Of a DNA stretch of 64,000 bases, positions 3,387 to 52,110 are shown piece by piece (position 1 is the stretch's first letter; every line of letters begins with the position of its first letter). The position numbers and the translations under genes are program-made. The stretch covers positions 312,744 to 376,743 of the forward strand of contig CAWCZF010000004.1 of NCBI GenBank assembly GCA_963799975.1, given 5' to 3'. The notes below the pieces were generated by a model that was given only the letters and a program-made list of their open reading frames with translations, was not told the origin of the DNA and did not search any database. This DNA comes from an uncultured Actinomycetota bacterium (GTDB taxonomy: Bacteria; Actinomycetota; Actinomycetes; Streptosporangiales; Streptosporangiaceae).

Positions 3387-3498
3387 ACCGATCAGCCTAG
3401 TGCGAGGGCGTCCCCGAGATCCGGCCGTCGCGATCGCGTCCGCGGGACGCGGCTGAGGGCGAACGCCCGCGCTCAGTGCGGCGAGCCGACCGACCGCG

Positions 3499-11398: not shown

Positions 11399-11511
11399 CA
11401 ACCCTCTCCGGCCGGGCCCTCCACCTAACGGTACGTCCCCGATCGCCTGGGGAGCATGCCTCACATGCTCCAACGCCCGGAGACCTCCGATGAACTCCCT
11501 CGACGTGACGA

Positions 11512-34142: not shown

Positions 34143-34209
34143 GCCCGGTTGTGCGAGGAGTGGACCGGAACCGGTAGACTTCGGGGCGCGCCGCATCTTG
34201 GTGCGGCCG

Positions 34210-34282
34210 GCCGCCTTAGCTCAGTCGGTAGAGCGATTCACTCGTAATGAATAGGTCATCGGTTCGATTCCGATAGGCGGCT
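34210..34282 (+). tRNA. tRNA-Thr (anticodon CGT)
   Basis: The cloverleaf folds by hand: acceptor GCCGCCT/AGGCGGC, D-arm GCTC/GAGC, anticodon arm ATTCA-CTCGTAA-TGAAT, T-arm ATCGG-TTCGATT-CCGAT, discriminator T. CCA is not encoded. Confidence 0.93.
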
Positions 34283-34283
34283 C
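34238..34283. repeat. attL: 46-bp direct repeat (3' half of tRNA-Thr), identical to 51971-52016
   Basis: TCACTCGTAATGAATAGGTCATCGGTTCGATTCCGATAGGCGGCTC occurs at both positions with no mismatch. Confidence 0.9.
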
Positions 34284-34350
34284 CCAGCTCAAAGGCCCCC
34301 TCCGATCTTCGGAGAGGGCCTTTTGCTAACGCTCTTGCTAACAGGCGCGT

Positions 34351-35586: not shown

Positions 35587-35765
35587 CAGGCGGCCTCTTC
35601 CATGAGCTGGTCGATGTAGGAGGTGAGTGCGCGGTAGGGCACGCGGCGTGAGCCACCGATGCGGAGTGAGGCGATGGCGCCGGCCTTGATGAGCTCGTAG
35701 AGCTTGCTGCGGGAGATGCCGAGCGCGGCGGCGGCTTCGGGCACGGTGAGCAGGAGCTTCGTCAT
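35586..35765 (-). CDS. xis: excisionase / MerR-type HTH DNA-binding protein
   Basis: 59-aa MTKLLLTVPEAAAALGISRSKLYELIKAGAIASLRIGGSRRVPYRALTSYI. The stop overlaps the int ATG. The ATG at 35763-35765 overlaps the presumed repSA stop. Confidence 0.8.
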   Translation of the reverse strand: MTKLLLTVPEAAAALGISRSKLYELIKAGAIASLRIGGSRRVPYRALTSYIDQLMEEAA

Positions 35766-37164
35766 GCGGCGGCCTGTTCGACAGCGCCGGGAGTAAGTGG
35801 TGGCAGCGGTCTGCCGCTGAGTGCGGCAGATGAGGAAGGCTTCGCCGGGGGTGTGGCCTCGTCCGGCGTATTGCCAGTGGGCGACGATGAGGACTTGGTC
35901 CTCGTCGGTGAGGGGGAGTCGGCCGGTGGTGATGTGGTGTTCGCGCTGGTTGTGGGCGCTCGGGCGGTGCGGAGTGCGCCGAGGGTGGTGGAGTATCGGC
36001 GGGATTTGGTGGAGAAGTGGCCGCGGAAGCCGAGCATGTGGGACCACTCGGTGAGGCGGAGGTCTGCGAGTTCGGGCAGGCCGCCGAGGCGGTGGCATTC
36101 GGTGATCAGTCGGCGTGGGTGGTCGCGGAGGCCGAGCCGGTTGAGGTCGTCGGTGGGTCGTATGGGGCGGTCGAGGGTGCCGACGCATTCGGCGGCTTTG
36201 GTGGCGTACTTGGCGATGTAGCCGGCGACGGCTTGGTCGGTGAGTTCGCCGGTGGTGGTGATGGGGCGTACGTCGACCTGGTCGCCCCAGGCGAGGCACG
36301 CGTGAGGTGAAGGTGTCGGCGGCCGGGGTGTTGACGGTTACGGCTTGGGCCGCGTGCCGTACGGCCCCGTCGAGGACATCGGCCGTCGCCCAGCCCGGGG
36401 CGGTTGTCGTGGGCCCGTCTGGTCCGTCGAAGCGGATGACGGCGTGGAAGTGGACGACGCCGCGCCGCTGGTATTCGGCGACCTTGGCGAAGGAGACGGT
36501 CAGGATGTCCCGCAGCTCGCGGGCGGTCAGGCCCGCGGATTTGGCGACGTGTCGGCGGAGTGCGAGGGTGAAGCGGCGCCATAGTTCGGGGGCGAGTGAG
36601 TTGAACAGGACCGAGCCGGAATAGTCGTAGCAGTCCGGGCAGAGCGGCTCGCCGAGGCGGGGATCGTCGGTGCCGTGTCGTTCGGTGCAGGACTGCGGGC
36701 GTCCGTGCGGGCAGGGGCCGAGGTCACGGCGAGGGCGGCACGGGCGGAGTGTGGCCGTTGTGTTGCCGTCGCGTGTGGACGGGTCCGAAGGATGGGGCGG
36801 TCAGGGTGGCGAAGACGGCGGGGTGGTCGGTGACGGTGGCGGGTATGCCTTTGCCGCCGACGAGGCCGGCGCGGACGAGTTGGTAGGTGTCGGCTCGGTA
36901 GGTCTCGGCGCAGGAGGGGCAGCGGGATGCGCGGCGTGTCTTGCAGGCGACGCGGAGTACGCCGTCCGGCTCGTGGTCGGTGGAGTAGCGGTGCAGGACG
37001 GTGCCGGTCAGCGGGTCGTGGTGTTCGATGCGGCCGCGGAGGTGGATGGGTTGTGCGCATCCGCCGGTCCGCTGGATCTGGGCGGCCCATCGCTGGTAGT
37101 CCGGGGCGGTGGCCCGGCGGGCGATGTCGCGGAGGGTCAGCGGGGACGGGACGGCAGCGGGCAA
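35762..37164 (-). pseudogene. repSA: RepSA-type AICE replication initiator; at least 4 frame interruptions as given
   Basis: Segments in three frames: ...TLRDIARRATAPDYQRWAAQIQRTGGCAQPIHLRGR...CKTRRASRCPSCAETYR / ...GEPLCPDCYDYSGSVLFN...VAEYQRRGVVHFHAVIRFDG / ...WGDQVDVRPI...AGYIAKYATK / ...MLGFRGHFSTKSRRYSTTLGALR / ...LIVAHWQYAGRGH. Confidence 0.8.
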
Positions 37165-37260
37165 GATTGACCGGTCTCCTGTCGTTGTGAAGCGGTGGAG
37201 ATGGCCCCCGACGTGGCGCGGAACTTGGCGGTTGTGCGGCCACGCCGGGGGCGCAGGGCG

Positions 37261-37389
37261 TCAGCAGAAGCCGAGGCCCTCGCAGTGCTCGCAGGTCCGG
37301 CCGTAGGAGTCGAGTCCTCCGCCGCCGCAGTGGCAGCACTGGTAGGTCTCGATGGGCGGGACGTGGGCGGGTCGCGGGTCGGTACTCAT
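37261..37389 (-). CDS. 42-aa Cys-rich zinc-ribbon protein (CxxCxGxG, DnaJ-finger-like); below the ORF-track size cut-off
   Basis: Hand translation: MSTDPRPAHVPPIETYQCCHCGGGGLDSYGRTCEHCEGLGFC. The ATG overlaps the stop of the upstream gene (ATGA). Small genes like this are common in AICE backbones. Confidence 0.5.
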   Translation of the reverse strand: MSTDPRPAHVPPIETYQCCHCGGGGLDSYGRTCEHCEGLGFC

Positions 37390-37754
37390 CAGGCGGCAGC
37401 GGCCTCGTGCTCGAAGGTCGGGGCGTAGGTCATGAGCGCCTGATGGGCGGCTCGGCGGCGCGCGGGGATGTGAACGGCGCTGTAGGTGATCCGGCCGAAG
37501 GTCTTGGCGACCGTGTAGTGGCCGCCGTCCGCGGTGTCGTCGGTGACGGTCTCGCCGAGTGCGGCGGCGATGGTGTCGATCTCGGCCCGCTCGGTCGCGT
37601 CGTCTTCGCTGCGGGCGAAGACGGTGTAGTCCTCTCCGAACTCGCGGACGGGGACACCGGGGTTGGCCTCAAGGAAGTCGGCCAGGGCGCGGAGGCCGGC
37701 GATGGTCTGGGTACGGGCGAACAGGTCATCGGGGAAGATCGGCTGTGTGGTCAT
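37389..37754 (-). CDS. hypothetical AICE backbone protein
   Basis: 121-aa ORF with acidic, non-repetitive composition (MTTQPIFPDDLFARTQTIAGLRALADFLEANPGVPV...). It sits in the operon chain. Confidence 0.5.
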   Translation of the reverse strand: MTTQPIFPDDLFARTQTIAGLRALADFLEANPGVPVREFGEDYTVFARSEDDATERAEIDTIAAALGETVTDDTADGGHYTVAKTFGRITYSAVHIPARRRAAHQALMTYAPTFEHEAAAA

Positions 37755-37763
37755 CTGGTTCCT

Positions 37764-38484
37764 TCAGGCGGTTCGGATTTGGCGGAGCAGGTCGGAGGCG
37801 AGTTGGTTGGAGACGCCGAGGCGGGCGCGTAGGGCGTCGCGGGTGATCGGCCGTCCGTGGTGGCTCTGGTGTTCGTCGGCGACCCGGCGGGCGAAGGTGA
37901 GGAGTTCGGCCGCCGGGTGCCGGGACGCGGCGCGTCGTCGGCGCCGCTTGATCGTCCGCATCGTTTCGTCGCCTGCTCGGCCGCGTCGTCCTGCTCGTCC
38001 GCTTGGTCGTCCTGCTCGTCCGGGACGGGGATGGGGGCCGGGGACGGCCGTCCGAAGGAGGGCGGGACGGGGGACGATGCCGCCGTGGTGGTGGCCGGGG
38101 TGCGGCCGGTGGAGCGGCGTTCGAGCATCGAGACGGCGACGAGGAAGGCACCGGCCGGGGTGCCGGCGGTGAGCCATCCCCAGGTGGTCGGCTGGGCTTG
38201 GTCGAGGTTGGCGGCCAGGGACAGGACGATGCCGCCGACCAGGACGAGCGTGGGCCAGGACAGCCCGCGTACGGCCGGTGGGTACGTTTGTCGCGTTGGC
38301 GTTCGCGTGCGGCCATGACGCAGGTCAGGTCGATGCAGATGGCGATGGCCCAGGCCATCCAGCCGTGTTGTCCGTGCTGGTCGGCGGTGTCGCGGATGTG
38401 GGTGAACGATCCAGCGGCGGCGATCGAGGCCAGGACGAGCATCGGCCCGGAGTCCGCGGCGATCTCGGCCAGGCGGGGCAGCAT
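37764..38484 (-). pseudogene. DUF2637-type membrane protein (Spd-like spread protein) with C-terminal HTH-like tail; two frame interruptions
   Basis: MLPRLAEIAADSGPMLVLASIAAAGSFTHIRDTADQHGQHGWMAWAIAICIDLTCVMAA... / ...WGWLTAGTPAGAFLVAVSMLERR... / ...LLTFARRVADEHQSHHGRPITRDALRARLGVSNQLASDLLRQIR. Confidence 0.6.
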
Positions 38485-38742
38485 CAGGCCGCCCACGGGT
38501 CGAGCACCTCGGCGAGCAGGGCGGCGAGTTCGGCGGTCACAGTGGTGTGTCTCGGCCCAGGTGTGCGCCTGCTCGAACCGGTCGGTGAACAGCCATTCCA
38601 TGCAGCGTTCGCACACTGCGGCGTACAGGCCGCGTCCCTCGTCCCACTCGACCGAGACGGGACCGGCCGGGGTCGGACCGGGACCGGGCACGGACGGACG
38701 GGGACGGCGAGGACGAAGCTTGATGATCTTGGCCAGTGCCAT
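38484..38742 (-). pseudogene. small hypothetical AICE protein (Cys/His-containing); probably ends at the TGA at 38484-38486 after a 1-nt shift
   Basis: AGGAG RBS, then ATG at 38740-38742: MALAKIIKLRPRR...VSVEWDEGRGLYAAVCERCMEWLFTDRFEQAHTWAETHHC. The alternate frame gives ...AELAALLAEVLDPWAA with a stop overlapping the next ATG. Confidence 0.4.
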
Positions 38743-38819
38743 GAGGACTCCTGTTTTCGGGCATGCGTCGGCTGGGGAGTTGGCGCGGGGGGGTGCGCCG
38801 GGCGGTTGGGGGGAGGGGG

Positions 38820-40172
38820 TTATGCGGCTTCGTCGTGGCCGGTGGCCGTCAGCTCGGCCCAGGGGCGCGCGAGGTGGGCGAAGCGCCGGGCGGCGCGTTC
38901 GGCCGCTTCCTCGCTGACGTAGACGGACCGGGCGCGATGCCAACTGCCGTCCTGTCCGGCGATGACCGCGACGCCGGGCATCTCGGCGGGGATCTGCCGG
39001 GCGGCCTCCAGCGCGGCCGGGTCCATGTCGCCCAGCGTCATGTTCGCCGTCTCGGGATCGTTCACGCGGTGGCAGATACGGCCCGGAGAGCTGGGATCGA
39101 AGGGCGGTCACACCGGGGCCGAGGTCGGAGCCGATCCGCTGGCCGCAGATCATCAGGTACACCCCGAAGGCGCGGCCGAGTTGCGCCACCCGGAGCAGTG
39201 CGGTCGCGGCCCGGGATACCTCTTCTTTCTGGCTCTTGTCGGCCATCAGGAACAGTTCGGCGACCTCGTCCACCAGGACCACGACCGGGGTCCGGCCGCA
39301 GGTGCTCGGGGAGTTTCCAGATGTTGCGGGCGCCATGGGTCCGGCAGAGCGCCATCCGTACGGTGACGATCTGGACGAGGTCATCGAGGAGCCCGACGCA
39401 TTCGGTACGGGTGGTGGCCAGCGCGGACAGCCGCGGAGCGTACGGGGTGAACTCGACGCCGCCCTTGAGGTCGAAGCCGACGAGGGCGATCGGCTGGGGC
39501 GCGAGTCCCTTGATGATGGCGTTGGCCAGGTTCGACTTGCCGGATTGGGTCGCTCCGGCGTTCAGCCAGTGCGGGCACGGTCCGGAAGTCCATGACCCAC
39601 GGTTGGCCGTTCTCCAGACGGCCAGGTCGTACGGTCAGCAGCTCTCCTGTCTCCGGGGCGATGTCGACCACGCGTCAGCGGGTCGCGCATGGTGGCGAGC
39701 AGCAGCGACGCGGCCCGGCTTGGACTTGACGACCCGTACGGCGTGGACCCGCCAGGCGTGCGCGAGCCGTTCGGCGACCTTGGCGTAGTCGTCGGGGACC
39801 TGGCCGTCGAGCAGCTTGACCCAGACCCGCCAGCCCAGCCGTGTCGGCCGCAGCACCCACAGCGGGGGAGCCTTCTCGACGAGGACGCTCCGGAGACGAC
39901 GCCGCTCGACACACGGCCGCCACGTCTCTCGCCGATCGCGACATCGAACCCGCGAGCGGTACCGAGTCCAGGCCGAGACGCCAGCGCCGCCGCTTGCAGG
40001 ACAGGCCACAGCCGACGGCGACGTGCGACCAGGTCAGGTAGACGAGTACGGCCTTGACCGGGAACTCAATGACGTACCAGAAGGAGCGAGGCAGCCACCG
40101 CCGCCACGCCCAGCCCCCGGCCGCCGAAGCGGCCAGGGCACCGAGAGCGACGACGATCGTCGTGTGGTTCAC
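38820..40172 (-). pseudogene. traB: FtsK/SpoIIIE-family dsDNA translocase (TraB/TraSA-type conjugative transfer protein); at least 5 frame interruptions
   Basis: N-terminal TM region (VNHTTIVVALGALAASAAGGWAW...). Walker A HWLNAGATQSGKSNLANAII. ...VVVLVDEVAELF... (Walker B). ...FGVYLMICGQR...TALRSQLSG... C-terminus ...ICHRVNDPETANMTLGD.... Confidence 0.8.
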
Positions 40173-40183
40173 GGTCGATCGTG

Positions 40184-40524
40184 TCAGGCCGCAGCCTGGC
40201 CGGCGGCGCGCCGCGAGTGATCGAGTCGGCCCGGTAGGCGATCCCCGAGCGCGTGACCCCGTCGCGGGTCTGCTCCCAGGGGAAGGCCGTGAGCTTGAAC
40301 GGCGTGACGATCTGGCCGACCTGCACCGCCGGGTCACCGGAGATGGCGACGTTGATCAGTTCGACCCGCCCCGACTCGTTCGCGGCCGAGAGGCCCACCT
40401 GATAGACGGTCTGGCCGTTCCGGTCGACCTTCACCTCACCGGTGTCCTGGTTGACGAGCTTCGGGCGAGGGGCCGCCACGCATACGAACGAGAGTGCCGC
40501 GGTGTCTACCGGGATGTTCCGCAA
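40184..40524 (-). pseudogene. pra: Pra-type 'replication, integration and excision activator' protein; the listed ORF runs on to 40066, but a shifted frame ends at the TGA at 40184-40186 just before the traB GTG
   Basis: MRNIPVDTAALSFVCVAAPRPKLVNQDTGEVKVDRNGQTVYQVGLSAANESGRVELINVAISGDP...FPWEQTRDGVTRSGIAYRADSI. Position (between korSA and traB) and size match pSAM2 pra. Confidence 0.55.
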
Positions 40525-40555
40525 TCCGATCTCCCTGCTTCGATCGGATCAATAT

Positions 40556-40579
40556 ACTTAGTAGGTTAACGTACTAAGT
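40556..40579. promoter_or_regulatory. 24-bp near-perfect palindrome ACTTAGTAgGTTAACgTACTAAGT in the pra / korSA divergent promoter region; candidate GntR (KorSA) operator
   Basis: Read directly. 8-bp perfect outer arms plus a central GTTAAC. It lies 39 nt upstream of the korSA ATG. Confidence 0.5.
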
Positions 40580-40617
40580 AGTGATGGTCTACTATGGACG
40601 TGAAGAAGGGAGAGTGA

Positions 40618-41362
40618 TGGCGATCACACAACCCCGGTACGCGCAAGTGGCAGACGTGCTGCGCGACCGGATCAACGCCGGGACGTACGAACCCGGTGAT
40701 CAGCTTCCGTCCCAGCGCGAGCTAAGGGAGGAGTTCGATATCTCCGTCCCGACCGCGAAGGCCGCGATCTCGCAGCTCGTCAGCGAGGGACTCGTCTACG
40801 CCCACCAGGGGCGAGGCGTGTTCGTGCGGGAGACGAAGGAGCTACTTAGGTTCGCCGGCGGTCGCTACGGCCTGGCCGGCACGCCGAACGCTCGCGAAGA
40901 AGAGGCCAGCGGTATCGAGCTGGACGTCCGCGCCGAACATCGACAGGTCCAGGCCACACCCGAAGTCGCGGCAAGGCTGGAGATCGAGCCGGGCGACATG
41001 TGCAGCGAAGCCGTCTACTCGTGGTACCTGGACGGCGAACCGGTCATGATCAGCACCCAGTGGGAGCCACTCGCCATGACCCGCGAGAACCGAGATCGAG
41101 ACGCCCGCCGGCGGGGAGCGCGGCGAACCGGACGTGATCACGCGGTTCGGCAAGATCGGCATCACCGTGAAGAAGACCCGCGAGGACATCCGGACCCGGA
41201 TGCCGACCCCGGACGAGGCCCACACGCTCAAGACCCCCAGCGGGGTGCCGGTCTTCTACATTCAGCGCACTCACTACGCCAGACGTCCCGGTGGAAACCG
41301 CGGACATCGTCATGCGAGGGGACTCGTTCGTCGTCCGTAACGAACAAGCCATCCCCCTCTAA
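40618..41362 (+). pseudogene. korSA: GntR/HutC-family transcriptional repressor (KorSA-type) with UTRA domain; two frame interruptions (near 41085 and 41285)
   Basis: MAITQPRYAQVADVLRDRINAGTYEPGDQLPSQRELREEFDISVPTAKAAISQLVSEGLVYAHQGRGVFV (wHTH). The UTRA part continues in shifted frames (...ITRFGKIGITVKKTREDIRTRMPTPDEAHTLK.P.GVPVFYIQRT.Y...). Confidence 0.8.
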
Positions 41363-41716
41363 CCAAACGCGCAGACAGGGGCCGTGACGCGATCCAGTTC
41401 AGCGATCGTCCCGGCCTCGTCCTTCGCCAATCCCTGATTATGTACCTCAGAGCAAAGACAGGAAATGCGGAGAGTCATCATTATGAACCCGAGCGCCGTA
41501 CCCCGAAGATGCCCACACCATCGCCGATCGCTTGGTGAAAGCCTGCCAAGCCCAGGGCTTGAGCGCCGCCATACTCAGCCCGACACGTATCAAGGTGAGC
41601 CTGCCGAAGGCCCACCACCACCTCGCCGAAGTCATCAAGATCATGCCCGACGAGGACGAGAACCTCGTCCCTCTACTGGAGCTGGGACGAACGCATCTGC
41701 CCGGCTAGCGAGATCG

Positions 41717-41992
41717 ATGAGAGCGGTCAAAGTCGATCAAGCACGTCGTCACGCCGCCCCTTCGCTCCCAGTTCTGATGACCGCCGAAGAGAACGAACTG
41801 GCACGCGCCGTACGCGAGTTCAACGCAGCCGTCGACTCACTGACGTGGCCCGGAGTGAGCTGGATAGCCGAACTCGCACAGCTCAAGATCCTCATCACCA
41901 AGTACCCCGACCACGCTCGGCAGCTACTCGGCGAGCAACCGCCGGCTACCGCCAACACACCGGGAGTGAGCTGGAACCACCACCCCGGCTGA
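41717..41992 (+). CDS. hypothetical protein (start uncertain; ATG at 41777 also possible)
   Basis: The tail of ORF 41465..41992 is protein-like (MTAEENELARAVREFNAAVDSLTWPGVSWIAELAQLKILITKYPDHARQLLGE). No family was recognised. Confidence 0.3.
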   Translation: MRAVKVDQARRHAAPSLPVLMTAEENELARAVREFNAAVDSLTWPGVSWIAELAQLKILITKYPDHARQLLGEQPPATANTPGVSWNHHPG

Positions 41993-42294
41993 ATGCAGCA
42001 CGGTTCTCGTGTCGTCGGCGTGTGGGACGACCGGGTGATCGAGACCCTTGATCCCCGGTCGGCCCCCGCGCCTGAAATGGCGGACGAGTTGGACTCCGAG
42101 TCCAGACCGGCGAGCACGGAATTAGTACACGTCATCGCCAAGGACCGTGCGCGTAGCCGTACCTCAAGAGCGACGATCCGCAGAGTCTGGGAGGTGCCGC
42201 TCAGCACCCTTGCCGCCGAAACGTTCTCCCACGCCGGTTCGATCCACCGTCGCACACCTGGTTTGAATCCCTCCGACCAGATTGGCCTACCGCA

Positions 42295-42661
42295 ATGCTC
42301 TCCCCATCGTCGGACTCCCCTGACGACCAGTTACTACGACCGAACGAAGCAGCCGAACTCTTAGGCGTCCTACCACACCAGCGTCGCGAAGTGGGCAAGA
42401 GCCGGAAGACTACGGCCCTCCTTCACCCCCGGCGGCCATCGCCGCTACCGACTGGCCGACGTCCGCGAACTCCTCAACCTCAACGAAATAACGCCAGAGC
42501 AACGCCAACTCGAACAGGACGCGGTCAGGCTGTACGAACAGGGCTGGAGCATCCGCCAAGTCGCCGCCCAGTTCGGAACCACCTACGGCACCATGCGCAG
42601 ACTCCTCCTCAGACACAAAACGCTGAGGTCGCGGAGCACCCCACGGCCCGAACGCCCGTAG
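42295..42661 (+). pseudogene. excisionase-family (MerR-like) HTH plus second HTH DNA-binding protein; one frame interruption near 42368
   Basis: ...DDQLLRPNEAAELLGV / YHTSVAKWARAGRLRPSFTPGGHRRYRLADVRELL...QDAVRLYEQGWSIRQVAAQFGTTYGTMRRLLLRH. Stop at 42659-42661. Confidence 0.55.
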
Positions 42662-42673
42662 CGGACCGGGCGC

Positions 42674-43772
42674 TCAGCCACAATGACGCGTGACGGTCGA
42701 TACCGCGTCGTCGAGGCCGCCTCCAGTCGCGTCCATGACGGCGTCCACGGACCAGGAGAGCGTGCGGCCGTCCTGTGTCAATTCCAAGGTGAGGCCGGCT
42801 TCGAAGCGGGTGGCGAACAGTGCGAAGTCCGCCGCCGGAACCGCTTGGTGGACGGCGTCGAGCAACGCGGCCGCGAAGTCGTCGCGTTGGGCCCTGGCTG
42901 CCAAGTCGCACTCGCGCAGGGCGGCGGCGACCGCGGCGCTGGCCGGGTCGTAGGCCGACAGGTGGGGCAGCGACGCCGGGTCGCGTAGACACGCGGCAGC
43001 GTCCAGGCCCCAGGAGCGGACGCCCTCCTCCGCGTCGAGCGACTCGATGAGCGGAGCCGTGGCCCGGGGGTCGCCCGCCTGGCCAGCCGAAGACCGCCTC
43101 CTCGTGGACGGCGCGGCTGTCATCGCGGATGCGCGCCCACAAGGCGGCGCGCGCGGCAGGGGTGTCGACGGCCAGTTGGCTGCCCAGGCCGAACGTCGCC
43201 CAGTCGCGCACATCGGCATCCGGGTCTCCAGTCAGGCGCACCAGCACGTCGACCTCGATGCCGCCGAAGTCGCCGGTGGCCACGGCGGGCAGCGCCTGGG
43301 CCACCTGGCAGCGAACGTCCGCGCCAGGGTGCCCGGCCAGACTCACCAGGACCGAGATCGCCCGTTCGTCGGCCGTACGGCCGAGGGCGCGAGCCAGGGA
43401 CCAGGCGACGTCGGTATCGGTCTCCGGCGCCAAGCCCAGCAACGCGGATGCGGCCTCCTCGCGTACGGACTCGTGTCGGTCACTCGCGCAACCCAGGAGA
43501 TCGCAGCCGACCGAGCGGGTCACCGGATCGGGTGAGCCGAGCATCCCGACGCCGTGCCGCAGCGACGCTTCGCCGTCCTCCGCGACCTGGCCGAGGATCT
43601 GCCAGACGGCGTCGTACTCCTCTGGGTCCGTGACATCACGCGCCACCTCACGGCCCGCGTGACCCGAACGTCGATTGCCGGCTGCGTTCTCTCGCGAGGT
43701 CGAGCGAACTCCGTCGATCCCCGGCCGGACACCGCGACCGCACCCCATTAACGCAGACACCGGCTCGCCCAT
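42674..43772 (-). pseudogene. HEAT-repeat (PBS-lyase-type) protein; one frame interruption near 43085; start uncertain
   Basis: Repeated D.D..VR..A...LG units (SPDPVTRSVGCDLLG, HPGADVRCQVAQALP, DPDADVRDWATFGLG). The C-terminal part continues in ORF 42674..43219 (..GDPRATAPLIESLDAEEGVRSWGLDAAACL...). Confidence 0.6.
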
Positions 43773-43885
43773 CGAGAAACCGCAGCGAAGCCGAACCAGC
43801 ACCTATAAAGCATCAGGTGGGACTGAAGTGACAAGCATCTACCGGGACAGGACAGGCTTACGGGGCGCGTGGATGAGGACTTTCT

Positions 43886-46800
43886 CTACGTCTTCAAGGG
43901 CGCCGCTCCGCGTCGCCGGCCGGTCCATCCGGGCCGGGCGTGCGGCCTCTCCGGGCCGGTCCCGGCCCGGCCAACCGGCCCTACTCGTCTGGCTCTTGAA
44001 GCCACGGGAAGGTCTTCCCCGGTGAGCTGCCGCCAGACAGAGGTGACGGTCTCACGGTCCTTCTTGTGAGCTTGGCGCAGCATGCTCACGATGCCCTCGA
44101 CCAAGTCGTTGAGATCCCGTTCAACCGCGATCACCAACGCCTCAAAGAGGCAGCGAGTGCTTAGGCTCACCTGGCTGAGTTCCAGGAGAGCCATACCCAT
44201 AACCGTCGTGCTTCGGGCGAGGTCAGGGCGGTAGCGGTCGGGGTTGGTCTCGGCCAGCTCGCGATAGGTCTGACGGCTTCTTCGGTGACCGGGAGTGCCT
44301 CGGCCGGGCGGCCCAGCGCCGAGAACCGGACACCGAGGTTGGACAGGGAGGAGGCGAGGTCGGGGCGGTAGCGGTCGGGGTTGGTCTCGGCCAGCTCGCG
44401 GCGGATAGCGACGGCTTCTTCGGTGACCAGGAGTGCCTCGGCCGGGCGGCCCAGCGCCGAGAACCGGACACCGAGGTTGGACAGGGAGGAGGCGAGGTCG
44501 GGGCGGTAGCGGTCGGGGTAAGTCTCGGCCAGCTCGCGATAGGTCTGGACGGCTTCTTCGGTGACCGGTAGTGCCTCGGCCGGGCGGCCCAGCGCCGAGA
44601 ACATGGCGCCGAGGTTGGTCAGGGAGGAGGCGAGGTCGGGGCGGTAGCGGTCGGGGTAAGTCTCGGCCAGCTCGCGATAGGTCTGGACGGCTTCTTCGGT
44701 GACCGGGAGTGCCTCGGCCGGGCGGCCCAGCGCCGAGAACATGGCGCCGAGGTTGGTCAGGGAGGAGGCGAGGTCGGGGCGGTAGCGGTCGGGGTAAGTC
44801 TCGGCCAGCTCGCGATAGGTCGGGGATGGCTTCTTCGGTGACCGGGAGTGCCTCGGCCGGGCGGCCCAGCGCCGAGAACATGGCGCCGAGGTTGGTCAGG
44901 GAGGAGGCGAGGTCGGGGCGGTAGCGGTCGGGGTAAGTCTCGGCCAGCTCAGCGATAGGTCTGGACGGCTTCTTCGGTTGACCGGTGAGTGCCTTGGCCG
45001 TGCGGCCCAGCGCCGAGAACGGGATACCGAGGTTGGTCAGCGAGCGCGCGAGGTCGGGGCGGTAGCGGTCGGGGTGGTCAGCGGCCAGCTCGCGGTGGAG
45101 CGCGACGGCTTCCTCGGTCGACCGGCAGTGCCTCGGCCGGGCGGCCCAGCTCCGAGAGCATGACGCCGAGGTTGGTCAGCGAGGAGGCGAGGTCGGGGCG
45201 GTACGCGGTCGGGGTAAGTCGCGGCCAGTTCGCGGTAGATCTGCGACGGCTTCCTCGGACGAGCGGCGAGCGCCTCGGCCGGGCGGCCCAGCTCCGAGAA
45301 CCGGACACCGAGGTTGGACAGGGAGGAGGCGAGGTCGGGGCGGTACCGGTCGGGGTCAGTCGCGGCCAGTTCGCGATAGAGCGTGGACGGCTTCCTCGGT
45401 CGACCGGCAGTGCCTCGGCCGGGCGGCCCAGCGCCGAGAACCGGACACCGAGGTTGGACAGGGAGGTGGCGAGGGCGGGGCGGTAGAGGTCGGGCTCGGT
45501 CGCGGCCAGCTCGCGGCGGATCGCGACAGCTTCCTCGGCCGAGCGGCAGCGCCTCGGCCGGGCGGCCCAGCGCCGAGAACCGGACACCGAGGTTGGACAG
45601 CGAGGAGGCGAGGGCGGGGCGGTAGCGGTCGGGGTTGGCCGCGGCCAGCTCGCGGCGGATAGCGACGGCTTCCTCGGTGACCAGGAGTGCCTCGGCCGGG
45701 CGGCCCAGCGCCGAGAACATGACGCCGAGGTTGGACAGGGAGGAGGCGAGGTCGGGGCGGTAGCGGTCGGGGTGGGTCGCGGCCAGCTCGCGGCGGATCG
45801 CGACGGCTTCCTCGGTCGAGCGGGCAGCGCCTCGGCCGGGCGGCCCAGCGCCGAGAACTGGACGCCGAGGTTGGTCAGGGAGGAGGCGAGGTCGGGGCGG
45901 TAGCGGTCGGGGTAAGTCGCGGCCAGCTCGCGATAGATCGGGACGGCTTCTTCGGTCGACCGGGAGTGCCTCGGCCGGGCGGCCCAGCTCCGAGAACCGG
46001 ACACCGAGGTTGGACAGGGAGGAGGCGAGGTCGGGGCGGTAGAGGTCGGGGTAAGTCTCGGCCAGCTCGCGATAGGTCTGGACGGCTTCTTCGGTGACCG
46101 GGAGTGCCTCGGCCGGGCGGCCCAGCGCCGAGAACCGGACACCGAGGTTGGACAGGGAACGGGCGAGGTCGGGTAGGTAGATCTCGCGGTCGGTGTCGGT
46201 GAGGGTGCGGCACACTAAGGTAAGGAATTCGGTCAAAGTCGCGCTGAAGAACGCGCCGCTGACCGATGACTTGGGGAGCTGGTCGGCTACGGCGAACGCG
46301 TTTTGTTTGAACGCGGTCGGATTGGTGCGGCCGAGCTGGAGCAAGCCATGTCGCAGAATGACAGCTGTTTCCATGGTGGCCGCGAGTGGGGGAGCCGCCG
46401 CCGCGAACGGCGCCGGATGATCCACGATCAGGCCCCGTACCTGATCAGCGATTACGCGATATTCGGGGTGGCTAGTAGTGCGCAGGAGGGTGAACAGCGC
46501 CGCGTAGGCCGTGTCGAAGTCATCGATCAAATCAGCGACATGGCCCAGCAGTAAGGTCTGGGCCGACAAGATGTCGCCCAACAGGAGCTCGGCGAGGCGA
46601 TCGGGCTGGAGATGACCAACCCCGTCCTCAACCCCGGCGAGTGGGGGATACAGGGCCGCGAGCCAGCCCACCAGCCCCGCAACGATGCCATCGTCGCGTT
46701 CCTGCTCTTCCTTGTCAAGCCGGCGGCGAGTCCGGCGAGCGCCTGGCAGCGTTCCCGATCACACGGCCCCATCAAGATCAATGCCGCCACCGCCCGATCC

Positions 46801-48382
46801 AGTACGGCATCTTGTTCACGAACACGGGCATCGGGATCGAGCTGCGCCGACAAAACACCCTCGGCAAGCAGCCCGCGTCGGGCGGCCACCCGCCGTAAAT
46901 AGCGGCGTTCGTGGCGGATCAAGGCACGCTCTTCCCCCTTCCCAAGGGGCGGGCGTTCTTCACCCGTGGCCTCAGCGAGCAGATCAGTGAGCGCGGTGAT
47001 CTGCAACGTCAACGCATTCCCAAGACGATCGTCATCAAGATCGCGTGGAGCATCCGACAGCCGCTCCGCCAACGCCCTCCACCCGGAAGCCTCCACGCCC
47101 GGCACGGGCGGTTCTGGCAGCCGCGCCAGATGCTCGGCCAGCCCCTTGACCGCCGCCGCATACGCCTCCCGGCGCGATCGCCCTTCCTTTGTCAGGGCAC
47201 CGAGCCGCCGAAGGTCAGTGACGGCAGACCATGCATTGGTGAGATTGGTCCACCAGTCCCCCGCCGACCGTGCCAGCAACAACACCCGCACCATCCGAGC
47301 GGGTGGTTCCTCAGCCAAATCCGCCAATACCGCGATGTCGTTCGGGTTGGTCTCTGCATAGTCCGCGACGATCAGCACCGGCTGCGACGAACCCCGCACC
47401 CGGCCCACATACTCCCGCAGACCACCGGCAGGAAACCCGCCATCACCGTCACCGGCAGGATCGGCCGATCGCCGCAGAAATCCGGTGATCCACTCACCGC
47501 GCTGTGTGTCGGTGAGGAACTCTCGCGCCAACCGCGTCTTGCCTTGGCCGCCCTCCCCGGTCACGAGCAACATCGAGAACCGGTCTCGGCCATCGCGCCA
47601 CCGGCGCAACTCGGCCAGCACATCCCCACGGCCGCGAAAGCCCACGGCCTCTACCGCCGGTGCCAGCACCGAACCCGGCGTCCCCGCCTCCACCACCCCA
47701 GACGGAACCTGAAACAGATCACGCAGCTCTACCGACTCCACCACCGGTTCCACGCCGGTGTCCTCGGTGATCAGCTCCCTAAACTTCGCATCGGCCATGA
47801 TCTGATGGATGCGCACCGCATACAGCCGGTCATTGGAAAACCGCCCATCATCTTGTGCGGCGACACCGACCAACAAGCCGCGGCAAAAAACCGCAGCGCC
47901 CGATATACCAGCCCATTCATGACCGTGCACCACACGCGGTCCGCTGCGCTGGCCGAGCACGTATCCGCGTTTGGAACCGACCGCCAGCGGAGATAACCGG
48001 CCATCGAGCTGCTCCACACCCCGAACGGAGTCAAAATCCACGAACTCCGGGAATCCCAGACCCGTATAGTCCGCAGCGTCGCTTCCAGTGAAGCGGCCCC
48101 ACCGCACCGGCGGCGCCCCTGACACAAAAAGATCATCCAACCGGACCAGCGCCACATCATGGGCGATGCTTCGCCACACCGGAGTGGCCCCATGCTCACT
48201 CACCGGCCCCGCATCCGGATGGCCGAGAAAGACCCGCGCCGCGGCCACCATTCGCCGGTCGACTCATCCACCAGGACATGCCGAGCGGTCAACACCAGCC
48301 GCCGTCCAACCAAATACCCCGAACCGCCAAACGATTCCGCCATCGTCCCGGCTCGGACATCGGCTAGCCGCAAGCCGTCCAT
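43886..48382 (-). pseudogene. giant S1 (trypsin-like) peptidase domain - STAND-class P-loop NTPase - helical linker - TPR-type repeat protein; frame interrupted near 48245 and 46720 and repeatedly inside the repeat array. A shifted frame gives a more natural stop at 43981-43983 (...GEDLP-WLQEPDE*)
   Basis: The start ATG at 48380-48382 abuts the Trypco2 gene stop. Protease triad candidates: LTARHVL (His), HDVALVRL (Asp), AGISGAAVF (GxSG Ser). Walker A LLVTGEGGQGKTRLAREF, Walker B-like PVLIVADYAET, then VRVLLLARS. After ~250 aa of helical region come at least 14 repeats of consensus PDLASSLSNLGVRFSALGRPAEALPVTEEAVxxYRELAExxPDRYR. Confidence 0.8.
44200..46190 (-). repeat. tandem array of at least 14 near-identical ~138-bp (46-codon) coding repeats (TPR-type) inside the STAND gene
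   Basis: The motif ..GGCGGCCCAG ends at 44316, 44454, 44592, 44730, 44869, 45010, 45149, 45291, 45431, 45570, 45708, 45848, 45987 and 46125. Spacings are 138 x5, otherwise 139-142, never shorter. Confidence 0.9.
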
Positions 48383-48694
48383 TCACTCACCCCACGGGCG
48401 CGCCTGACGACGCCGCACATCGACCGGCACACCACCCGTCGCCGCATCCTTCACATCCAACTTCACCCGCAGCCGATGCGTATCCGCCCGCGCTACCTTC
48501 CCCGCTCCACCCAACGTCACCACACCTAACACCACCTTGCCGTCCACCCCGCCCTCCGACCGCGACTCCACCAAGAACTCCATCTCCACCTCGGTCACCC
48601 TGAACTGCAACTGCTGATCTTGAGCAGCGTCCTGCGCAACCCCCAACTCATCACGCAGCACCTCAAGCGCCTGACTCAACCCCACATACTCCAT
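48383..48694 (-). CDS. Trypco2-like (trypsin co-occurring domain 2) small protein
   Basis: The internal ATG at 48692-48694 gives 103 aa: MEYVGLSQALEVLRDELGVAQDAAQDQQLQFRVTEVEMEFLVESRSEGGVDGKVVLGVVTLGGAGKVARADTHRLRVKLDV. The pattern is helix, then 'F.V.EVE.EF.V', then 'K..hhVV.LGG.G......TH+h+V.L', which I recognise as Trypco2. The stop is directly adjacent to the protease-STAND start codon. Confidence 0.7.
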   Translation of the reverse strand: MEYVGLSQALEVLRDELGVAQDAAQDQQLQFRVTEVEMEFLVESRSEGGVDGKVVLGVVTLGGAGKVARADTHRLRVKLDVKDAATGGVPVDVRRRQARPWGE

Positions 48695-48900
48695 AACCCC
48701 GCCAACCCCGCTCCGTAGACACCAGACAGACAAAGTGTGACACCAGACGTCACTCCGAACCCGAAAACGACAAAACCGGATACGGCCAGGGACGAAGCAC
48801 GCCGCCACAGACCTGCCGCCGGCAGGCGCCACAACCCCCGAGTGCAGCCTCGCCCACCGACCTGCGCCGGCCAGCCAAGCCGGTTGAGCGAGCCCAAAGC

Positions 48901-48918
48901 GGGGGTCTCGAGACCCCC
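48901..48918. promoter_or_regulatory. perfect 18-bp palindrome GGGGGTCTCGAGACCCCC about 200 bp upstream of the Trypco2 start; hairpin or operator
   Basis: Read directly. A second inverted repeat, CCTGCCG-C-CGGCAGG, lies at 48812-48826. Confidence 0.35.
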
Positions 48919-48991
48919 AGCCCCCGCGAGCCGGAGCACTCACGCCCGCGAAACCGTCTATCACACCACCTCGCCGTCCGCGAGGGAGTGC

Positions 48992-49165
48992 GGGCTGCTT
49001 GACGAATTGTGCCTGACGCTCAGTCCGCAGATCGTGGGGGGAGCCGGGCCGCGCGTTCTTAACGGTCCTCTCATCGAGGGCTTGTCGATGCGGCTTGAAC
49101 TTCTCTTCGAGGAAGACGGCTTTCTGTTCATGCGCTACCTACGTGCGGACGATCCTGGCACCTGA
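48992..49165 (+). pseudogene. C-terminal fragment of a RibD_C / dihydrofolate-reductase-family protein (N-terminal ~3/4 missing)
   Basis: GLLDELCLTLSPQIVGGAGPRVLNGPLIEGLSMRLELLFEEDGFLFMRYLRA matches the last beta-alpha-beta units of the RibD C-terminal domain. The upstream in-frame sequence is non-homologous. Confidence 0.55.
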
Positions 49166-49224
49166 GCGCTATCACTCGGCGGCTCAGGTACGTCTGCACT
49201 CAAGATGCGGATGCACGAGAAGCG

Positions 49225-50135
49225 CTAGGTCAAGTTGTGGCGCGCGGTGGCCGGCGGACGCCAGCCCAAAATGCTCTCGACCATGCGAACCGATGGGACG
49301 ACGTTGGCGATGTCGTGCACTCGGACGATCCTCGCTCCCTGGAGAATGCACACGGAGAGGGTTGCAATAGTCCCCGCTAGGCGTTCGTTCTGCGGCAGGT
49401 CGAGGGTCTCGCCGATGAAGTCCTTGTTTGATACTGCAACCAGGGTCGGATAACCGATACCCGTGATTTCTGGCAGATGGCGGGTTAGTTCCAATGAGTG
49501 ATGCGTATTCTTATTGAGATCGTGGCCCGGATCGAGAATGATTCTGTCTTCCGGCACCCCATGGCTGACCGCCGCGTTCGCTTGCTGGCGAAGATGGCAG
49601 CGACCTCCCCGGCGACGTCTTCGTACGCGGGGCGTGGGAATGGCGTGCGTGGCGCTGCCAGGCTATGCGTGATGATCAAACCTGCTTCGGCCTCTGCGAC
49701 TGTGTCTGCCAAGGCTAGGTCGTGTAGGCCCGTAATATTGTTGATCACGTCTGCGCTGGCCGCTAGCGCTACGCGAGCGACTTCGGGCCGGTAGGTTTCG
49801 ACCGAGATGACCGCGTCGGTTCGTTCGCGGGCAGCCTTTACGAGGGGGAGGACGCGATCGATCTCTTCGCGCTCGGTCACCTCGGGGCCGGGCGAAAAGG
49901 GAACTCCGCCAATGTCGAGCCAATCCGCCTCATGGAGAATCGCATTCTCGACCGCCGTGATGGCCTTCGATAGATCGAAAGTGCGGCCACGATCATGGAA
50001 CGAGTCGGGAGTCCGATTGATTATCGCCATGACCGCAACCTGGCGCGAAAAGTCGAACCTCCGACGACCGATGGTCCGACGCGGACTTATGAAGTCAGGA
50101 TAGAAAATCTTAGGATTCGTTTCCATGAGACCCAA
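49225..50135 (-). pseudogene. second dihydropteroate-synthase-fold gene, FolP2-like (mycobacterial Rv1207 type); single frame interruption near 49583
   Basis: ...VMAIINRTPDSFHDRGRTFDL...ADWLDIGGVPFSPGPEV...VISVETYR.EVA..AL.A.ADVINNITG... / ...VPEDRIILDPGHDLNKNTHHSLELTRHL.E...GYPTLVAVSNKDFIGETL......RLAGTIA..SVCILQGARIVRVHD. The local sequence is visibly more AT-rich than the rest of the window. Confidence 0.8.
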
Positions 50136-50321
50136 CTTTGACGAAAGAGCGCGATGAATCGGACTCTCGGCAAGCTAACGGCGAAGCCGACGGTCTAACG
50201 TCTCCGAGCAGCCGCGACCAGGGAGAACAGCTCAAAGCTACGTCAGGGACTCGGGCCGGCGAGCGTCCTGACACGCGCCCGCAGGAGAGGGCGGGACTGG
50301 TGGAGGTAGACGAGTCGCAAG

Positions 50322-51233
50322 TCAGGACTGCCGTCGACGTACGTTGGTGACCAACCTCAGCAGCCCGAAGAACACCAACGCGCCGACCACGACAACGCTC
50401 ATCGCGATGGCTCGCTCCGAGAACGTCTTGGCCTTGACGATCACCGTTCCGGAGCCGATCAGAAAGCCCAGCAAGGTCACGAACAGGCCCAACACCTCAA
50501 CCATCTTCAACAGCCCCTCGGACACCAGTTCCTGAGCGACTGTTACCCGTTGGGTGAGATGCCGTGACGCCTCATCGATCTTCTGTTCCATCGCGGCTGA
50601 CGCCTGGTCGATCCGCTCGTCCACCCTGGCAGAGATCTCGTCCCCAAGAGCAGCGGCAGTCTCGGCCGCCTGCTGACGCATGTCGCGCGTGTTGATGATC
50701 GTTCGGCGCTCCTGCGCGTACTGCTCGTGGACGAGGATGTTCCCCACGCCGAACAGGTCGATCGCGAGATCGATGGCAGCAAGGGCTTCGTCGTACCTCC
50801 CAAGGCGCCGCAGTGCGGCAGCTCGCCGGTAGTGGATGTTCTCGTTGACCTCGCCTCTGGCCATCATGTCGTCGGCCAGGCTCAGCAAGGTCTCTGCCTG
50901 CTCCTCAAGATGATCAGCGAACCAAATCGCACTCAGGCAGACCTGGAGGCTCTTGTTGTCCGTGTCTGGCGCACGTACGGCCCGGTGGAAGAGATCGAGT
51001 CCGTTCGAGGCCCGCGAGCCGATACCGCCGAACGCCGCGAAGCTCATGATCAGTGCATCGTCGTGGAACTCACCCAGCCACTCATTGCAACGGGCCTGGC
51101 TCTCGCGAAACCGGTAGTCGAAGCGGAGCCGCTGACCGTGCACGTACGCCAAGACGAGCCGCTGCATACGAGAGCCGCTCAGCCCCCGCGCTGAACCCCA
51201 CTCCAGAGGCCCCGGGGTACCTCTGCTCGGCAA
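50322..51233 (-). CDS. hypothetical protein: TPR-like helical region, coiled coil, two C-terminal TM helices. It probably extends N-terminally to about 51505 through 1-2 frame interruptions near 51200
   Basis: 303-aa ORF. ...YRRAAALRRLGRYDEALAAIDLAIDL (TPR-like). ETAAALGDEISARVDERIDQASAAMEQKIDEASRHL (coiled coil). LKMVEVLGLFVTLLGFLIGSGTVIV and AIAMSVVVVGALVFFGLLRLV (TM helices). AT-richer codon usage, like folP2. Confidence 0.5.
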   Translation of the reverse strand: MPSRGTPGPLEWGSARGLSGSRMQRLVLAYVHGQRLRFDYRFRESQARCNEWLGEFHDDALIMSFAAFGGIGSRASNGLDLFHRAVRAPDTDNKSLQVCLSAIWFADHLEEQAETLLSLADDMMARGEVNENIHYRRAAALRRLGRYDEALAAIDLAIDLFGVGNILVHEQYAQERRTIINTRDMRQQAAETAAALGDEISARVDERIDQASAAMEQKIDEASRHLTQRVTVAQELVSEGLLKMVEVLGLFVTLLGFLIGSGTVIVKAKTFSERAIAMSVVVVGALVFFGLLRLVTNVRRRQS

Positions 51234-51970
51234 GACGTGCCAGCCACGCGAGATCGGTCGAGGCCGTGCGGATCTGGGGGAGGGTCGAGGCCGTAGCGTT
51301 CGACGGCGACGGCCAGGCCCGCGATCCAGCCGAGTCCGTCAGACGATGCCTGAGACGTGAAGTGGTCGACCAGCACAGCGGCGCGTTCCGCGGCGGGCGC
51401 GACCCTCATCCGCTCATCAAGGGCGGAGTCACCTTCGCCGGCATCCGATGGTGGAGCCTCATCCGCCGAACGCCGACCCTGCGGCGGGACGGGGCCTTGC
51501 ACCATGATCCTCCTAGCTCGCGCCGGGATGCGCCGACGTCATCCGGACTCAGCCGTGCCCGACCGGCATTCTAAGTCCAGGGCGAGCACTACGGCTCTGG
51601 GACGTCACCACCACAGGCCGCGGAAGGGGTACCGGTCGGTGTCGGTTACCCGCCTGGTGCTGCCGCACCGCTTCCGGTCCTCGGCGCGCTAGCGCGCACC
51701 TGCGGTCCGGGTCGGCTTGCCCCCGAATCACAGTGGTGCCGGCGCGTACGGGCGCGAGGAACTTGGCTCCGTCGAGAGGTCCACTCGCGCACGTGATTCG
51801 TTGGGTAGCTTGACGACGAGCTGGTGTGCTGAGGGCTCCAGTTCGCCAACCGGGCGCGGGCTCAGGTTGCTAACGCCGGTGCTAACGACCGCTCTGGACG
51901 GGCCTGGACAGGCTTGGACCGAGGAGAGGGCGGAGCGCAGGTCAGCGGTCAGATCTGGACGGCCGTGGAC

Positions 51971-52016
51971 ACCCTTAGCCTCACTCGTAATGAATAGGTC
52001 ATCGGTTCGATTCCGA
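51971..52016. repeat. attR: 46-bp copy of the tRNA-Thr 3' half
   Basis: Identical to 34238-34283. The upstream sequence lacks a D-arm, so this is not a second tRNA gene. Confidence 0.9.
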
Positions 52017-52110
52017 TAGGCGGCTCGTGCTTTGACCAGGGCGTTCACCTTAATCCGGTGGACGCCCTGAGTCATTCCGGCGGCAATTCCTGTTGCAGTT
52101 CCCGGGATGG

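Follow-up and report, generated by a model that had tools for sequence, protein, structure and literature searches.

The window analysed here is a 64,000-nt stretch of contig CAWCZF010000004.1 (assembly GCA_963799975.1), from an uncultured actinomycete of the Streptosporangiaceae, and all positions below are coordinates of this window. Our subject is an array of near-identical tetratricopeptide repeat (TPR)-like units. The array forms the C-terminal part of a gene that encodes a trypsin-like protease joined to a STAND (signal transduction ATPases having numerous domains) NTPase, and a gene for the small protein Trypco2 (= Pepco) directly precedes it. Both genes are read on the minus strand. 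An earlier note, made from the sequence alone, had described the repeats and had compared them with the sensors of NOD-like receptors (NLRs). The locus consists of the following features, given in gene order.

48383-48694, minus strand: Trypco2 gene, 103 aa, apparently intact (PF19631, E=6.5e-21, profile 1-77/78).
43886-48382, minus strand: protease-STAND-TPR gene, ~4.5 kb, ~1,470-1,490 aa after frame repair.
47862-48325, minus strand: trypsin-like serine protease domain (Trypsin_2, PF13365, after stitching of frames).
~48278-48280, ~48156-48158 and ~47901-47903, minus strand: protease triad, with His in LTARHVL, Asp in DVALVRL and Ser in GISGAAV, respectively.
47535-47558, minus strand: Walker A motif (P-loop) GEGGQGKT of the STAND NTPase; G232, G234, G235, G237 and K238 are invariant in the homologue alignment A1.
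44213-46158, minus strand: 14 TPR-like units (U1 to U14), head-to-tail, nominally 46 aa or 138 nt each (Tandem Repeats Finder, unit alignment).
46158, 46020, 45881, 45741, 45603, 45464 and 45324, minus strand: starts of U1 to U7.
45182, 45043, 44902, 44763, 44625 and 44487, minus strand: starts of U8 to U13; U14 occupies 44349-44213.

Tandem Repeats Finder (TRF) reported one array at 44216-46180, with a period of 138, 14.1 copies, 90% matches, 1% indels and a score of 2841. A period of 417 was also listed, but with 87% versus 90% matches it fits no better, and a higher-order repeat was rejected. When units were cut at the codon for each unit's first Ser and aligned with MAFFT, we obtained 14 units running from 46158 down to 44213; their lengths in gene order are 138, 139, 140, 138, 139, 140, 142, 139, 141, 139, 138, 138, 138 and 137 nt. 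The motif GGCGGCCCAG occurs 16 times in the window versus 0.69 occurrences expected, and none of 100 shuffles reached 16. Thirteen of these matches lie inside the array, and U9 carries a one-base variant of the motif. Pfam recognized the array as TPR_10 (E=4.7e-29), and TPR_12 was also matched. Mean amino acid identity between units is 0.83, and their nucleotide identity after removal of indels is 81-99%. The array is real and far beyond chance.

The earlier description of the repeats holds with some corrections. It had counted 14 recurrences of the motif at a basic period of 138 bp; there are indeed 14 units with a period of 138, the exact motif being present in 13 of them only. The pair of consecutive units given as an example (44317-44454 and 44455-44592) is identical at 127 of 138 positions, and both the translated unit consensus and the list of variable positions were reproduced from corrected units. 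Clean 46-residue units appear only once indels are removed; as assembled, nine of the 14 deviate from 138 bp or contain indels (lengths of 137-142 bp). A last correction is that the array gene sits on the minus strand.

In the stitched protein, a trypsin-like protease is followed by the STAND NTPase, a helical linker, the 14 TPR units and a C-terminal cap. After frame stitching, the protease matches Trypsin_2 over its entire profile (1-144/144) with 30.1 bits at a cutoff of 27.6. Residues D32, S117 and G115/G118 of the protease are invariant in alignment A1, and the motifs LTARHV, DVALVRL and GISGAAV are conserved there. The NTPase gives weak Pfam matches to AAA_16 and nSTAND_NTPase5. The closest proteins, 42-55% identical with E-values down to 3e-152, carry PF13365, PF25199 and TPR_10/12. 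The STAND/NLR context presumed in the earlier note is thus supported: the array closes a gene for a trypsin-like protease-STAND NTPase that has a Walker A motif. No close relative of the locus turned up in the collections searched: neither an exact-protein look-up of the integrase nor a peptide-pattern scan of the genome contigs gave a match, and the best protein match among 5.8 billion sequences is 55% identical. The stop codon of Trypco2 directly abuts the ATG (48382) of the protease-STAND gene, and in 57 of 80 related loci the corresponding gene is immediately preceded, on the same strand, by a Trypco2-like open reading frame (ORF).

Variation among the repeats was measured on indel-corrected units, using pairwise Nei-Gojobori proportions of nonsynonymous and synonymous differences (pN and pS) on units that recombine. 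Amino acid never changes at 30 of the 46 codons. The variable positions are 3, 7, 8, 11, 20-22, 27-29, 34-36, 39, 43 and 46, with singleton replacements at 9, 15, 17 and 26. The scaffold that had been called invariant is therefore nearly so, and positions 20-22 and 46 join the variable set. Scaffold and variable codons have equal pS (0.12-0.14), and their replacement diversity differs ~30-fold. The corresponding pN/pS is 0.07 for the scaffold versus 1.9 for variable codons, a split that is circular in that the codons were chosen from the same data. Independent hot positions were obtained with a unit hidden Markov model (HMM). It found arrays in 28 related loci, of which we used the 15 whose internal identity is at least 70%. 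The hottest positions in these 15 arrays are 7, 46, 29, 28, 8, 27, 15, 43, 11 and 22, and the entropy profile of the window array correlates with theirs (Spearman 0.65, p=1e-6). At these ten positions chosen from relatives, pN/pS in the window is 2.12 versus 0.38 elsewhere, pS being 0.13 in both. In the opposite direction, the top ten positions of the window show pN/pS >1 in six of eight clean arrays of relatives. Moreover, the five indel-free units taken alone have no scaffold replacements and a pN/pS of 1.7 at variable codons. The proposal that replacements are focused on a few codons is thus supported, with ~10-16 positions taking part: variation is neither evenly spread along the unit nor mostly synonymous.

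Positions 28-29 are dimorphic: they read either 'IR' or 'xY' (mostly HY), and both kinds of unit occur side by side in 25 of the 28 arrays, which come from many genera. Minor states at these positions include His and Cys, which are one-step intermediates between Tyr and Arg codons. The presence of this dimorphism across genera indicates that part of the variation is old polymorphism maintained within arrays rather than free variation.

The focused variation might itself be produced by assembly, if a collapsed or chimeric consensus had replaced repeats that are in truth fewer or more divergent. Its indels do show that the array has been corrupted, as detailed below, and contigs of four related loci end inside or at their arrays. 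However, independent indel-free arrays agree with it in unit length and hot positions and have a similar number of copies (L033, 14.3; L079, 13.7). Those arrays come from other genera and from both long-read and Illumina assemblies. The pattern also persists in the five intact units of the window alone. An assembly origin of the variation therefore seems very improbable.

Structural modeling bears on where the variable positions lie. An AlphaFold2 (AF2) model of the region from U11 to mid-U14 (164 in-frame residues) is all helical, with a predicted local distance difference test score (pLDDT) of 95.6. According to AF2 secondary structure, the unit consists of two 21-residue helices, A (positions 37-46 plus 1-11) and B (15-35). 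Foldseek matched the model to TPRs of kinesin light chain with template modelling (TM) scores of 0.74-0.79, to LGN and to the Podospora structures 4Y6W/4Y6C (TM 0.80). In the register of Pfam TPR_1, profile position 1 is unit position 45; hence unit positions 46, 3, 7 and 11 are TPR positions 2, 5, 9 and 13. Concave-face TPR positions include 2, 5, 9, 12 and 13; positions 2, 5, 9 and 13 are among Magliery and Regan's seven most variable, concave-face positions and contact ligand in co-crystal structures of HOP (PMC1261162). Together with 39, 43 and 8, unit positions 46, 3, 7 and 11 form one +3/+4 stripe along helix A. The variable sites of helix B (20-22, 27-29 and 34-36) are spaced at a period of 7 and so lie on a single face. 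The earlier suggestion that the variable positions map to the ligand-binding face thus gains support for the four helix-A positions that correspond to TPR 2, 5, 9 and 13.

The units also bear marks of shuffling. Amino acid identity is 0.83 within the array but only 0.42-0.58 when its units are compared with those of any other array; among six further arrays of high homogeneity, the mean identity between arrays is 0.64. All four allele combinations are present in 208 of 406 informative site pairs, so that the units appear as mosaics drawn from a small stock of local variants. Mosaic units in an array homogenized by concerted evolution support the earlier idea of unit shuffling. Across the family, 138-bp arrays follow the NTPase, with TRF copy numbers from 2.5 to 14.3.

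As assembled, the array is damaged. Indels affect nine of its 14 units and amount to 15 inserted bases and one deletion; U1, U4, U11, U12 and U13 are free of them. No reading frame spans the array; instead, there are at least five overlapping ORFs in three frames, and the out-of-frame stretches are Pro/Arg-rich nonsense. Insertions fall at five of 137 possible junctions within the unit, and four of these five touch a polymorphic column. At junction 57/58, three units read CTG+C, CTC+G and CTC+A, that is, their own third base followed by another allele of the same Leu codon, for which C, G and A all occur as third base among units. At junction 117/118, CGC+G sets the CGC and CGG alleles side by side, and in U7 the two alleles of codon 27, GCG and CAG, are fused as GCAG. 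Junction 63/64 is hit in seven units, by G+A in four, G+G, G+T or A+A, and the adjacent codon is ACC, GCC or TCC. Keeping both alleles in this manner is what a gap-friendly consensus would be expected to yield in long-read polishing when reads of different units or array variants pile together. The indel density in the array (16 in 1.95 kb, ~8/kb) compares with at most ~2/kb in the worst-hit ordinary genes of the window, and relatives' arrays with at least 90% matches have 0% indels, except L023 at 1%. The usual bacterial bias is toward deletions, opposite to the 15:1 excess of insertions seen here. Corrected units contain no in-frame nonsense mutations. Since the inserted bases at one junction differ, they do not represent a single real frameshift spread by gene conversion. 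The earlier warning that assemblers and polishers corrupt such regions was well placed, for this copy of the array is corrupted at the indel level, and the copy number and order of its units are accordingly provisional.

Two further explanations address the insertions themselves. The alleles standing side by side could come from a real mixture of arrays in the sequenced culture, merged by the consensus, if the array recombined often enough, for example between chromosome copies in multinucleate hyphae; we regard this as very improbable. If it were true, somatic-like diversification of a bacterial NLR sensor would be observable within one culture. Alternatively, the changes of frame might serve a function, the sensor being subject to programmed frameshifting or to phase variation. 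Cumulative insertions do come back in frame after U3, U6 and U10, and the total of +15 is 0 mod 3; however, the chance of regaining the frame is ~1/3 each time, and the insertion sites lack slippery or homopolymeric tracts. Moreover, the out-of-frame stretches encode proline/arginine-rich nonsense, intact relatives lack such changes, and the same type of frameshift is scattered over unrelated genes. We give this explanation practically no weight.

The non-repeat part of the STAND gene is interrupted as well. Homologues P0001, P0002 and P0008 align by tblastn over three successive frames (48382-48239, 48233-46722 and 46674-46057), which reveals two further frameshifts in its 2.2 kb.

48234-48238, minus strand: frameshift 1 (net -1 or +2), in GGCGCGGGTCTTT and outside the array (three-frame translation, tblastn).
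46675-46721, minus strand: frameshift 2, separating ...CQALAGLAA from LVGWLAALYPP..., likewise outside the array (translation, tblastn).

As assembled, the frame that encodes the triad His is not that of Asp and Ser. A TAG in an alternative frame at 43981-43983 marks a possible further frameshift near the end of the gene.

The Trypco2 and STAND genes are cargo of a 17.7-kb integrated element at 34238-52026, which is bounded by a perfect 46-nt direct repeat and has a GC content of 0.675 versus 0.71 and 0.69 in the flanks. Its other features are listed below, together with the chromosomal copy of folP.

34238-34283, plus strand: attL, the 3' part of tRNA-Thr(CGU), whose gene is at 34209-34286 (ARAGORN, Rfam).
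34351-35586, minus strand: tyrosine integrase (Phage_integrase, E=5.3e-22, plus SAM-like and Arm domains).
35832-37251, minus strand: replication initiator (rep), in frames -2, -3, -1 and -3, i.e. with three frameshifts.
37726-39384: FtsK/DUF2637 chimeric ORF with fragments of both.
42609-43802, minus strand: HEAT-repeat ORF just downstream of the STAND gene (weak PADLOC match to HEAT-ARM_XIII, 7.7e-8).
49225-50135, minus strand: second dihydropteroate synthase (Pterin_bind, folP), besides the chromosomal folP adjoining folB-folK.
50322-51233, minus strand: TPR ORF with a C-terminal hydrophobic segment, upstream of the element's folP.
51981-52026, plus strand: attR, identical over 46 nt to the 3' end of tRNA-Thr and in direct repeat with 34238-34283.
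2083-3614: chromosomal folP, with Pterin_bind profile positions 1-75, 77-150 and 145-192 in three frames.

Frameshifts are not confined to the STAND gene. We accepted as evidence split domains verified by Pfam or tblastn; a frame HMM based on GC content at third codon positions was tried as a window-wide frameshift counter and rejected, as it is too ambiguous in 70% GC DNA for a count. Damaged regions of the window are 2083-3614, 10271-12650, 35832-37251, 37726-39384, 40581-41387, 42609-43802 and 49225-50135. In addition to the chromosomal folP, the element's folP is split (Pterin_bind profile 1-164 and 163-244), as are Zincin_2 (profile 1-204 and 217-344) and Peptidase_S13, the latter two being chromosomal and outside the element. 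The rep gene was aligned by tblastn with an intact 522-aa ORF of Nonomuraea gerenzanensis (76% nucleotide identity). Within the element, the UTRA domain of a GntR gene is truncated, and the C-terminal half of the HEAT-repeat ORF is Arg/Gly/Pro-rich nonsense that looks frameshifted, although Pfam did not confirm it. The genes for FtsH, LPG synthase, DHODH, PntA, FolB, FolK and DUF3180 are intact. Dihydropteroate synthase (folP) is generally regarded as essential. Two broken copies are unlikely to be real in a free-living actinomycete with 70% GC, which points to an assembly with residual indel errors, and any 'pseudogene' in the window is therefore to be distrusted. With frameshifts in many other genes of the window, the indels of the array are most likely artefacts of consensus building or polishing and not decay. 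The other frameshifts in the STAND gene are probably errors of the same kind, so that the real gene is probably intact.

Taken as a whole, we consider it likely that the array acts as C-terminal sensor in an NLR-like conflict system, made up of two genes and carried on a tRNA-Thr element, with artefactual indels and a real gene that is probably intact. Several points weigh against this interpretation. The match to nSTAND_NTPase5 (PF25199) reaches 18.0-18.2 bits, below the cutoff of 34, although homologues of 45-55% identity carry that domain. Searched with the HMMs of PADLOC-DB v2, the NTPase ORF, Trypco2, the TPR units and the homologue P0008 all lacked a match at E<=0.01. The concave-face assignment, made by TPR register, covers positions of helix A only. 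The ligand, an anti-phage role and cleavage of Trypco2 are suggested by analogy with Avs4, whose NTPase is not demonstrably of the same family. Seven units share one insertion junction, a pattern that one real frameshift spread by gene conversion could yield. The homologue P0001 of Spirillospora NBC_00431 and the metagenomic P0002 are out of frame in their TPR regions; this could mean that real decay is common in the family, and the two proteins fit either view. Finally, if reads of different units were mixed in the consensus, some of the mosaicism and of the substitutions may be artefactual.

The shared junction and the two out-of-frame homologues, which are the nearest ones, would fit a genuine pseudogene, in which the STAND gene and much of the element are decaying and the indels are real, some of them spread by gene conversion. 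So would the frameshifts outside the array, both in the STAND gene and in rep, FtsK/DUF2637, GntR, the HEAT-repeat ORF and the element's folP. However, chromosomal genes beyond the element are hit too (folP in three frames, Zincin_2 and Peptidase_S13), and both folP copies would have to be dead. An insertion excess of 15:1 runs counter to the deletion bias, and three units have three different bases inserted at one junction, each equal to a neighboring allele. Moreover, the constrained scaffold (pN/pS 0.07) without in-frame nonsense and the att repeats, perfect over 46 nt, do not look like decay. We regard a pseudogene as unlikely.

Irrespective of its cause, frame loss in these arrays appears from public sequences to recur in other assemblies. 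P0001 (locus L001, Spirillospora sp. NBC_00431, CP107927.1, 11838-13973) is an 866-aa 'serine protease' in a 'complete' genome, and its last ~150 residues are out-of-frame TPR sequence; P0002 ends likewise. In the draft genomes with loci L030, L059, L074 and L061, the contig ends inside the 138-bp array or at most 30 nt from it, which indicates that short-read assemblers break at these repeats.

A different role is conceivable as well: the gene might encode a regulatory or housekeeping STAND/TPR protein, either AfsR/SARP-like or a chaperone-type scaffold, whose repeat identity reflects recent tandem duplication. In NCBIfam, the array finds only sub-threshold TPR similarities, to the TPR parts of AfsR and of FxSxx system proteins, and the missing PADLOC match would agree with such a role. 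Yet these NCBIfam scores are 25-54 bits versus cutoffs of 300-1430. In addition, an N-terminal protease with an abutting Trypco2/Pepco gene is a signature of conflict systems (PMC7159879; bioRxiv 10.1101/2025.11.14.688446), the system is carried by a mobile element, and neutral recent duplication would not be expected to leave an excess of replacements at positions that recur across genera. A regulatory role is thus highly improbable.

For the favored conflict system, we infer from sequence that the array is the specificity-determining sensor, and a mechanism may be proposed. The groove of the TPR superhelix would bind a foreign, probably phage, protein, and binding would release NTPase oligomerization. 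Oligomerization would in turn bring the protease domains together, so that the C-terminal tail of Trypco2/Pepco could be clipped. The clipped Trypco2/Pepco would then form a β-barrel pore and cause cell death. New specificities might arise as unequal recombination or gene conversion reshuffles pre-existing unit variants.

Parts of this scheme have precedents. In conflict systems of multicellular bacteria, Trypco1 and Trypco2 were defined as domains that partner trypsin-like peptidases (Kaur 2020, PMC7159879). Beside the trypsin-fused STAND protein SsAvs4, Pepco (= Trypco1/2) forms β-barrels that are stable in sodium dodecyl sulfate; the SsAvs4 sensor binds phage portal protein, whereupon the protease removes a ~2-kDa C-terminal tail of Pepco, and the truncated SsPepco causes cell death, in keeping with pore formation (bioRxiv 10.1101/2025.11.14.688446). 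As in the SsPepco-SsAvs4 pair of Streptomyces subrutilus, the window has a Trypco2/Pepco gene immediately upstream of a trypsin-STAND-helical-repeat gene in an actinobacterial host. In contrast, the window NTPase has no PADLOC match and groups with nSTAND_NTPase5 relatives, and the 46-aa units of its sensor are near-identical and regularly arrayed.

The repeat signature that the earlier note described for fungal and bacterial NLR sensors can be found in the literature (Dyrka 2014, PMC4986451; Dyrka 2020, bioRxiv 10.1101/2020.01.06.895854; Kaur 2020, PMC7159879). Fungal NLRs have TPR, ANK or WD repeats with high internal identity and few positively selected, concave positions (PMC4986451). The window array likewise follows a STAND NTPase, has 80-90% identity between units with a replacement excess at few positions, and its variable helix-A positions correspond to concave-face TPR positions. 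The Podospora anserina '42PR' protein (4Y6W/4Y6C; Marold 2015 class) shares the fold (TM 0.80), but the window unit has 46 rather than 42 residues. The window also differs from the fungal cases in its bacterial host and in its N-terminal effector, a protease with a separate toxin gene. Actinobacterial and cyanobacterial NLRs have also been noted to have internally conserved TPR/WD repeats (bioRxiv 10.1101/2020.01.06.895854). These resemble the window gene in their occurrence in filamentous actinobacteria, the combination of NTPase and TPR, units that are 80-90% identical and a proposed rapid diversification, whereas they have Bell/amyloid-motif effectors and NB-ARC in place of a protease with Trypco2.

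Closer counterparts are found among the related loci, in which intact relatives of the STAND gene measure 1,136-1,418 aa. L033 (Actinomadura sp. WMMA1423) has an intact ORF of 1,418 aa with 14.3 units, 92% matches and 0% indels, and L079 (Kineococcus sp. SYSU DK006) has one of 1,411 aa with 13.7 units and 90% matches. Both share the gene pair, domain order, 138-bp period, similar copy number and hot positions with the window. They differ in sequence (~33% identity in the protease-NTPase part and ~49% in the units), and their frames are uninterrupted. Among solved structures, the closest by sequence is the kinesin light chain TPR (3ZFW, 6SWU; E=1e-8), which has long helices and a concave groove that binds peptides; being eukaryotic, with six divergent repeats and with neither an NTPase nor an immune role, it is a structural analogue only.

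Both the repeat signature and the Pepco-protease module are thus already known, and the window locus is a rather divergent member of the family. What is noteworthy about it is its location on a tRNA-Thr integrative element and the degree to which assembly has damaged the array. If the real gene is intact, it represents a further bacterial NLR-like receptor, here mobilized, that diversifies its binding surface via reshuffled near-identical repeats, and it would support a receptor-diversifying strategy shared by filamentous actinobacteria and fungi. The cross-genus comparison nominates positions 7, 8, 11, 15, 22, 27-29, 43 and 46 as candidate specificity positions for use in engineering or ligand prediction. 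As arrays are hot spots of consensus errors, such genes are expected to be annotated as pseudogenes or fragments and to be under-counted in surveys of defence repertoires.

The element, which also carries the GntR/UTRA regulator, looks like an actinomycete integrative conjugative element. When it was searched against a plasmid collection, the rep gene was the sole match (76%, Nonomuraea). Its folP could be a sulfonamide-resistance-type or backup copy. This gene, the HEAT-repeat ORF and the TPR ORF with a hydrophobic segment were considered as components of the system and rejected, since they have no counterpart in the 80 related loci; the latter two are probably unrelated cargo.

In seven close NTPase relatives with 42-51% identity (P0006, P0009, P0012, P0013, P0015, P0017 and P0020), an N-terminal sigma-70 domain of the extracytoplasmic function (ECF) type replaces or accompanies the trypsin-like protease. 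Such a swap of effectors suggests that some members of the NTPase family may signal via transcription rather than proteolysis.

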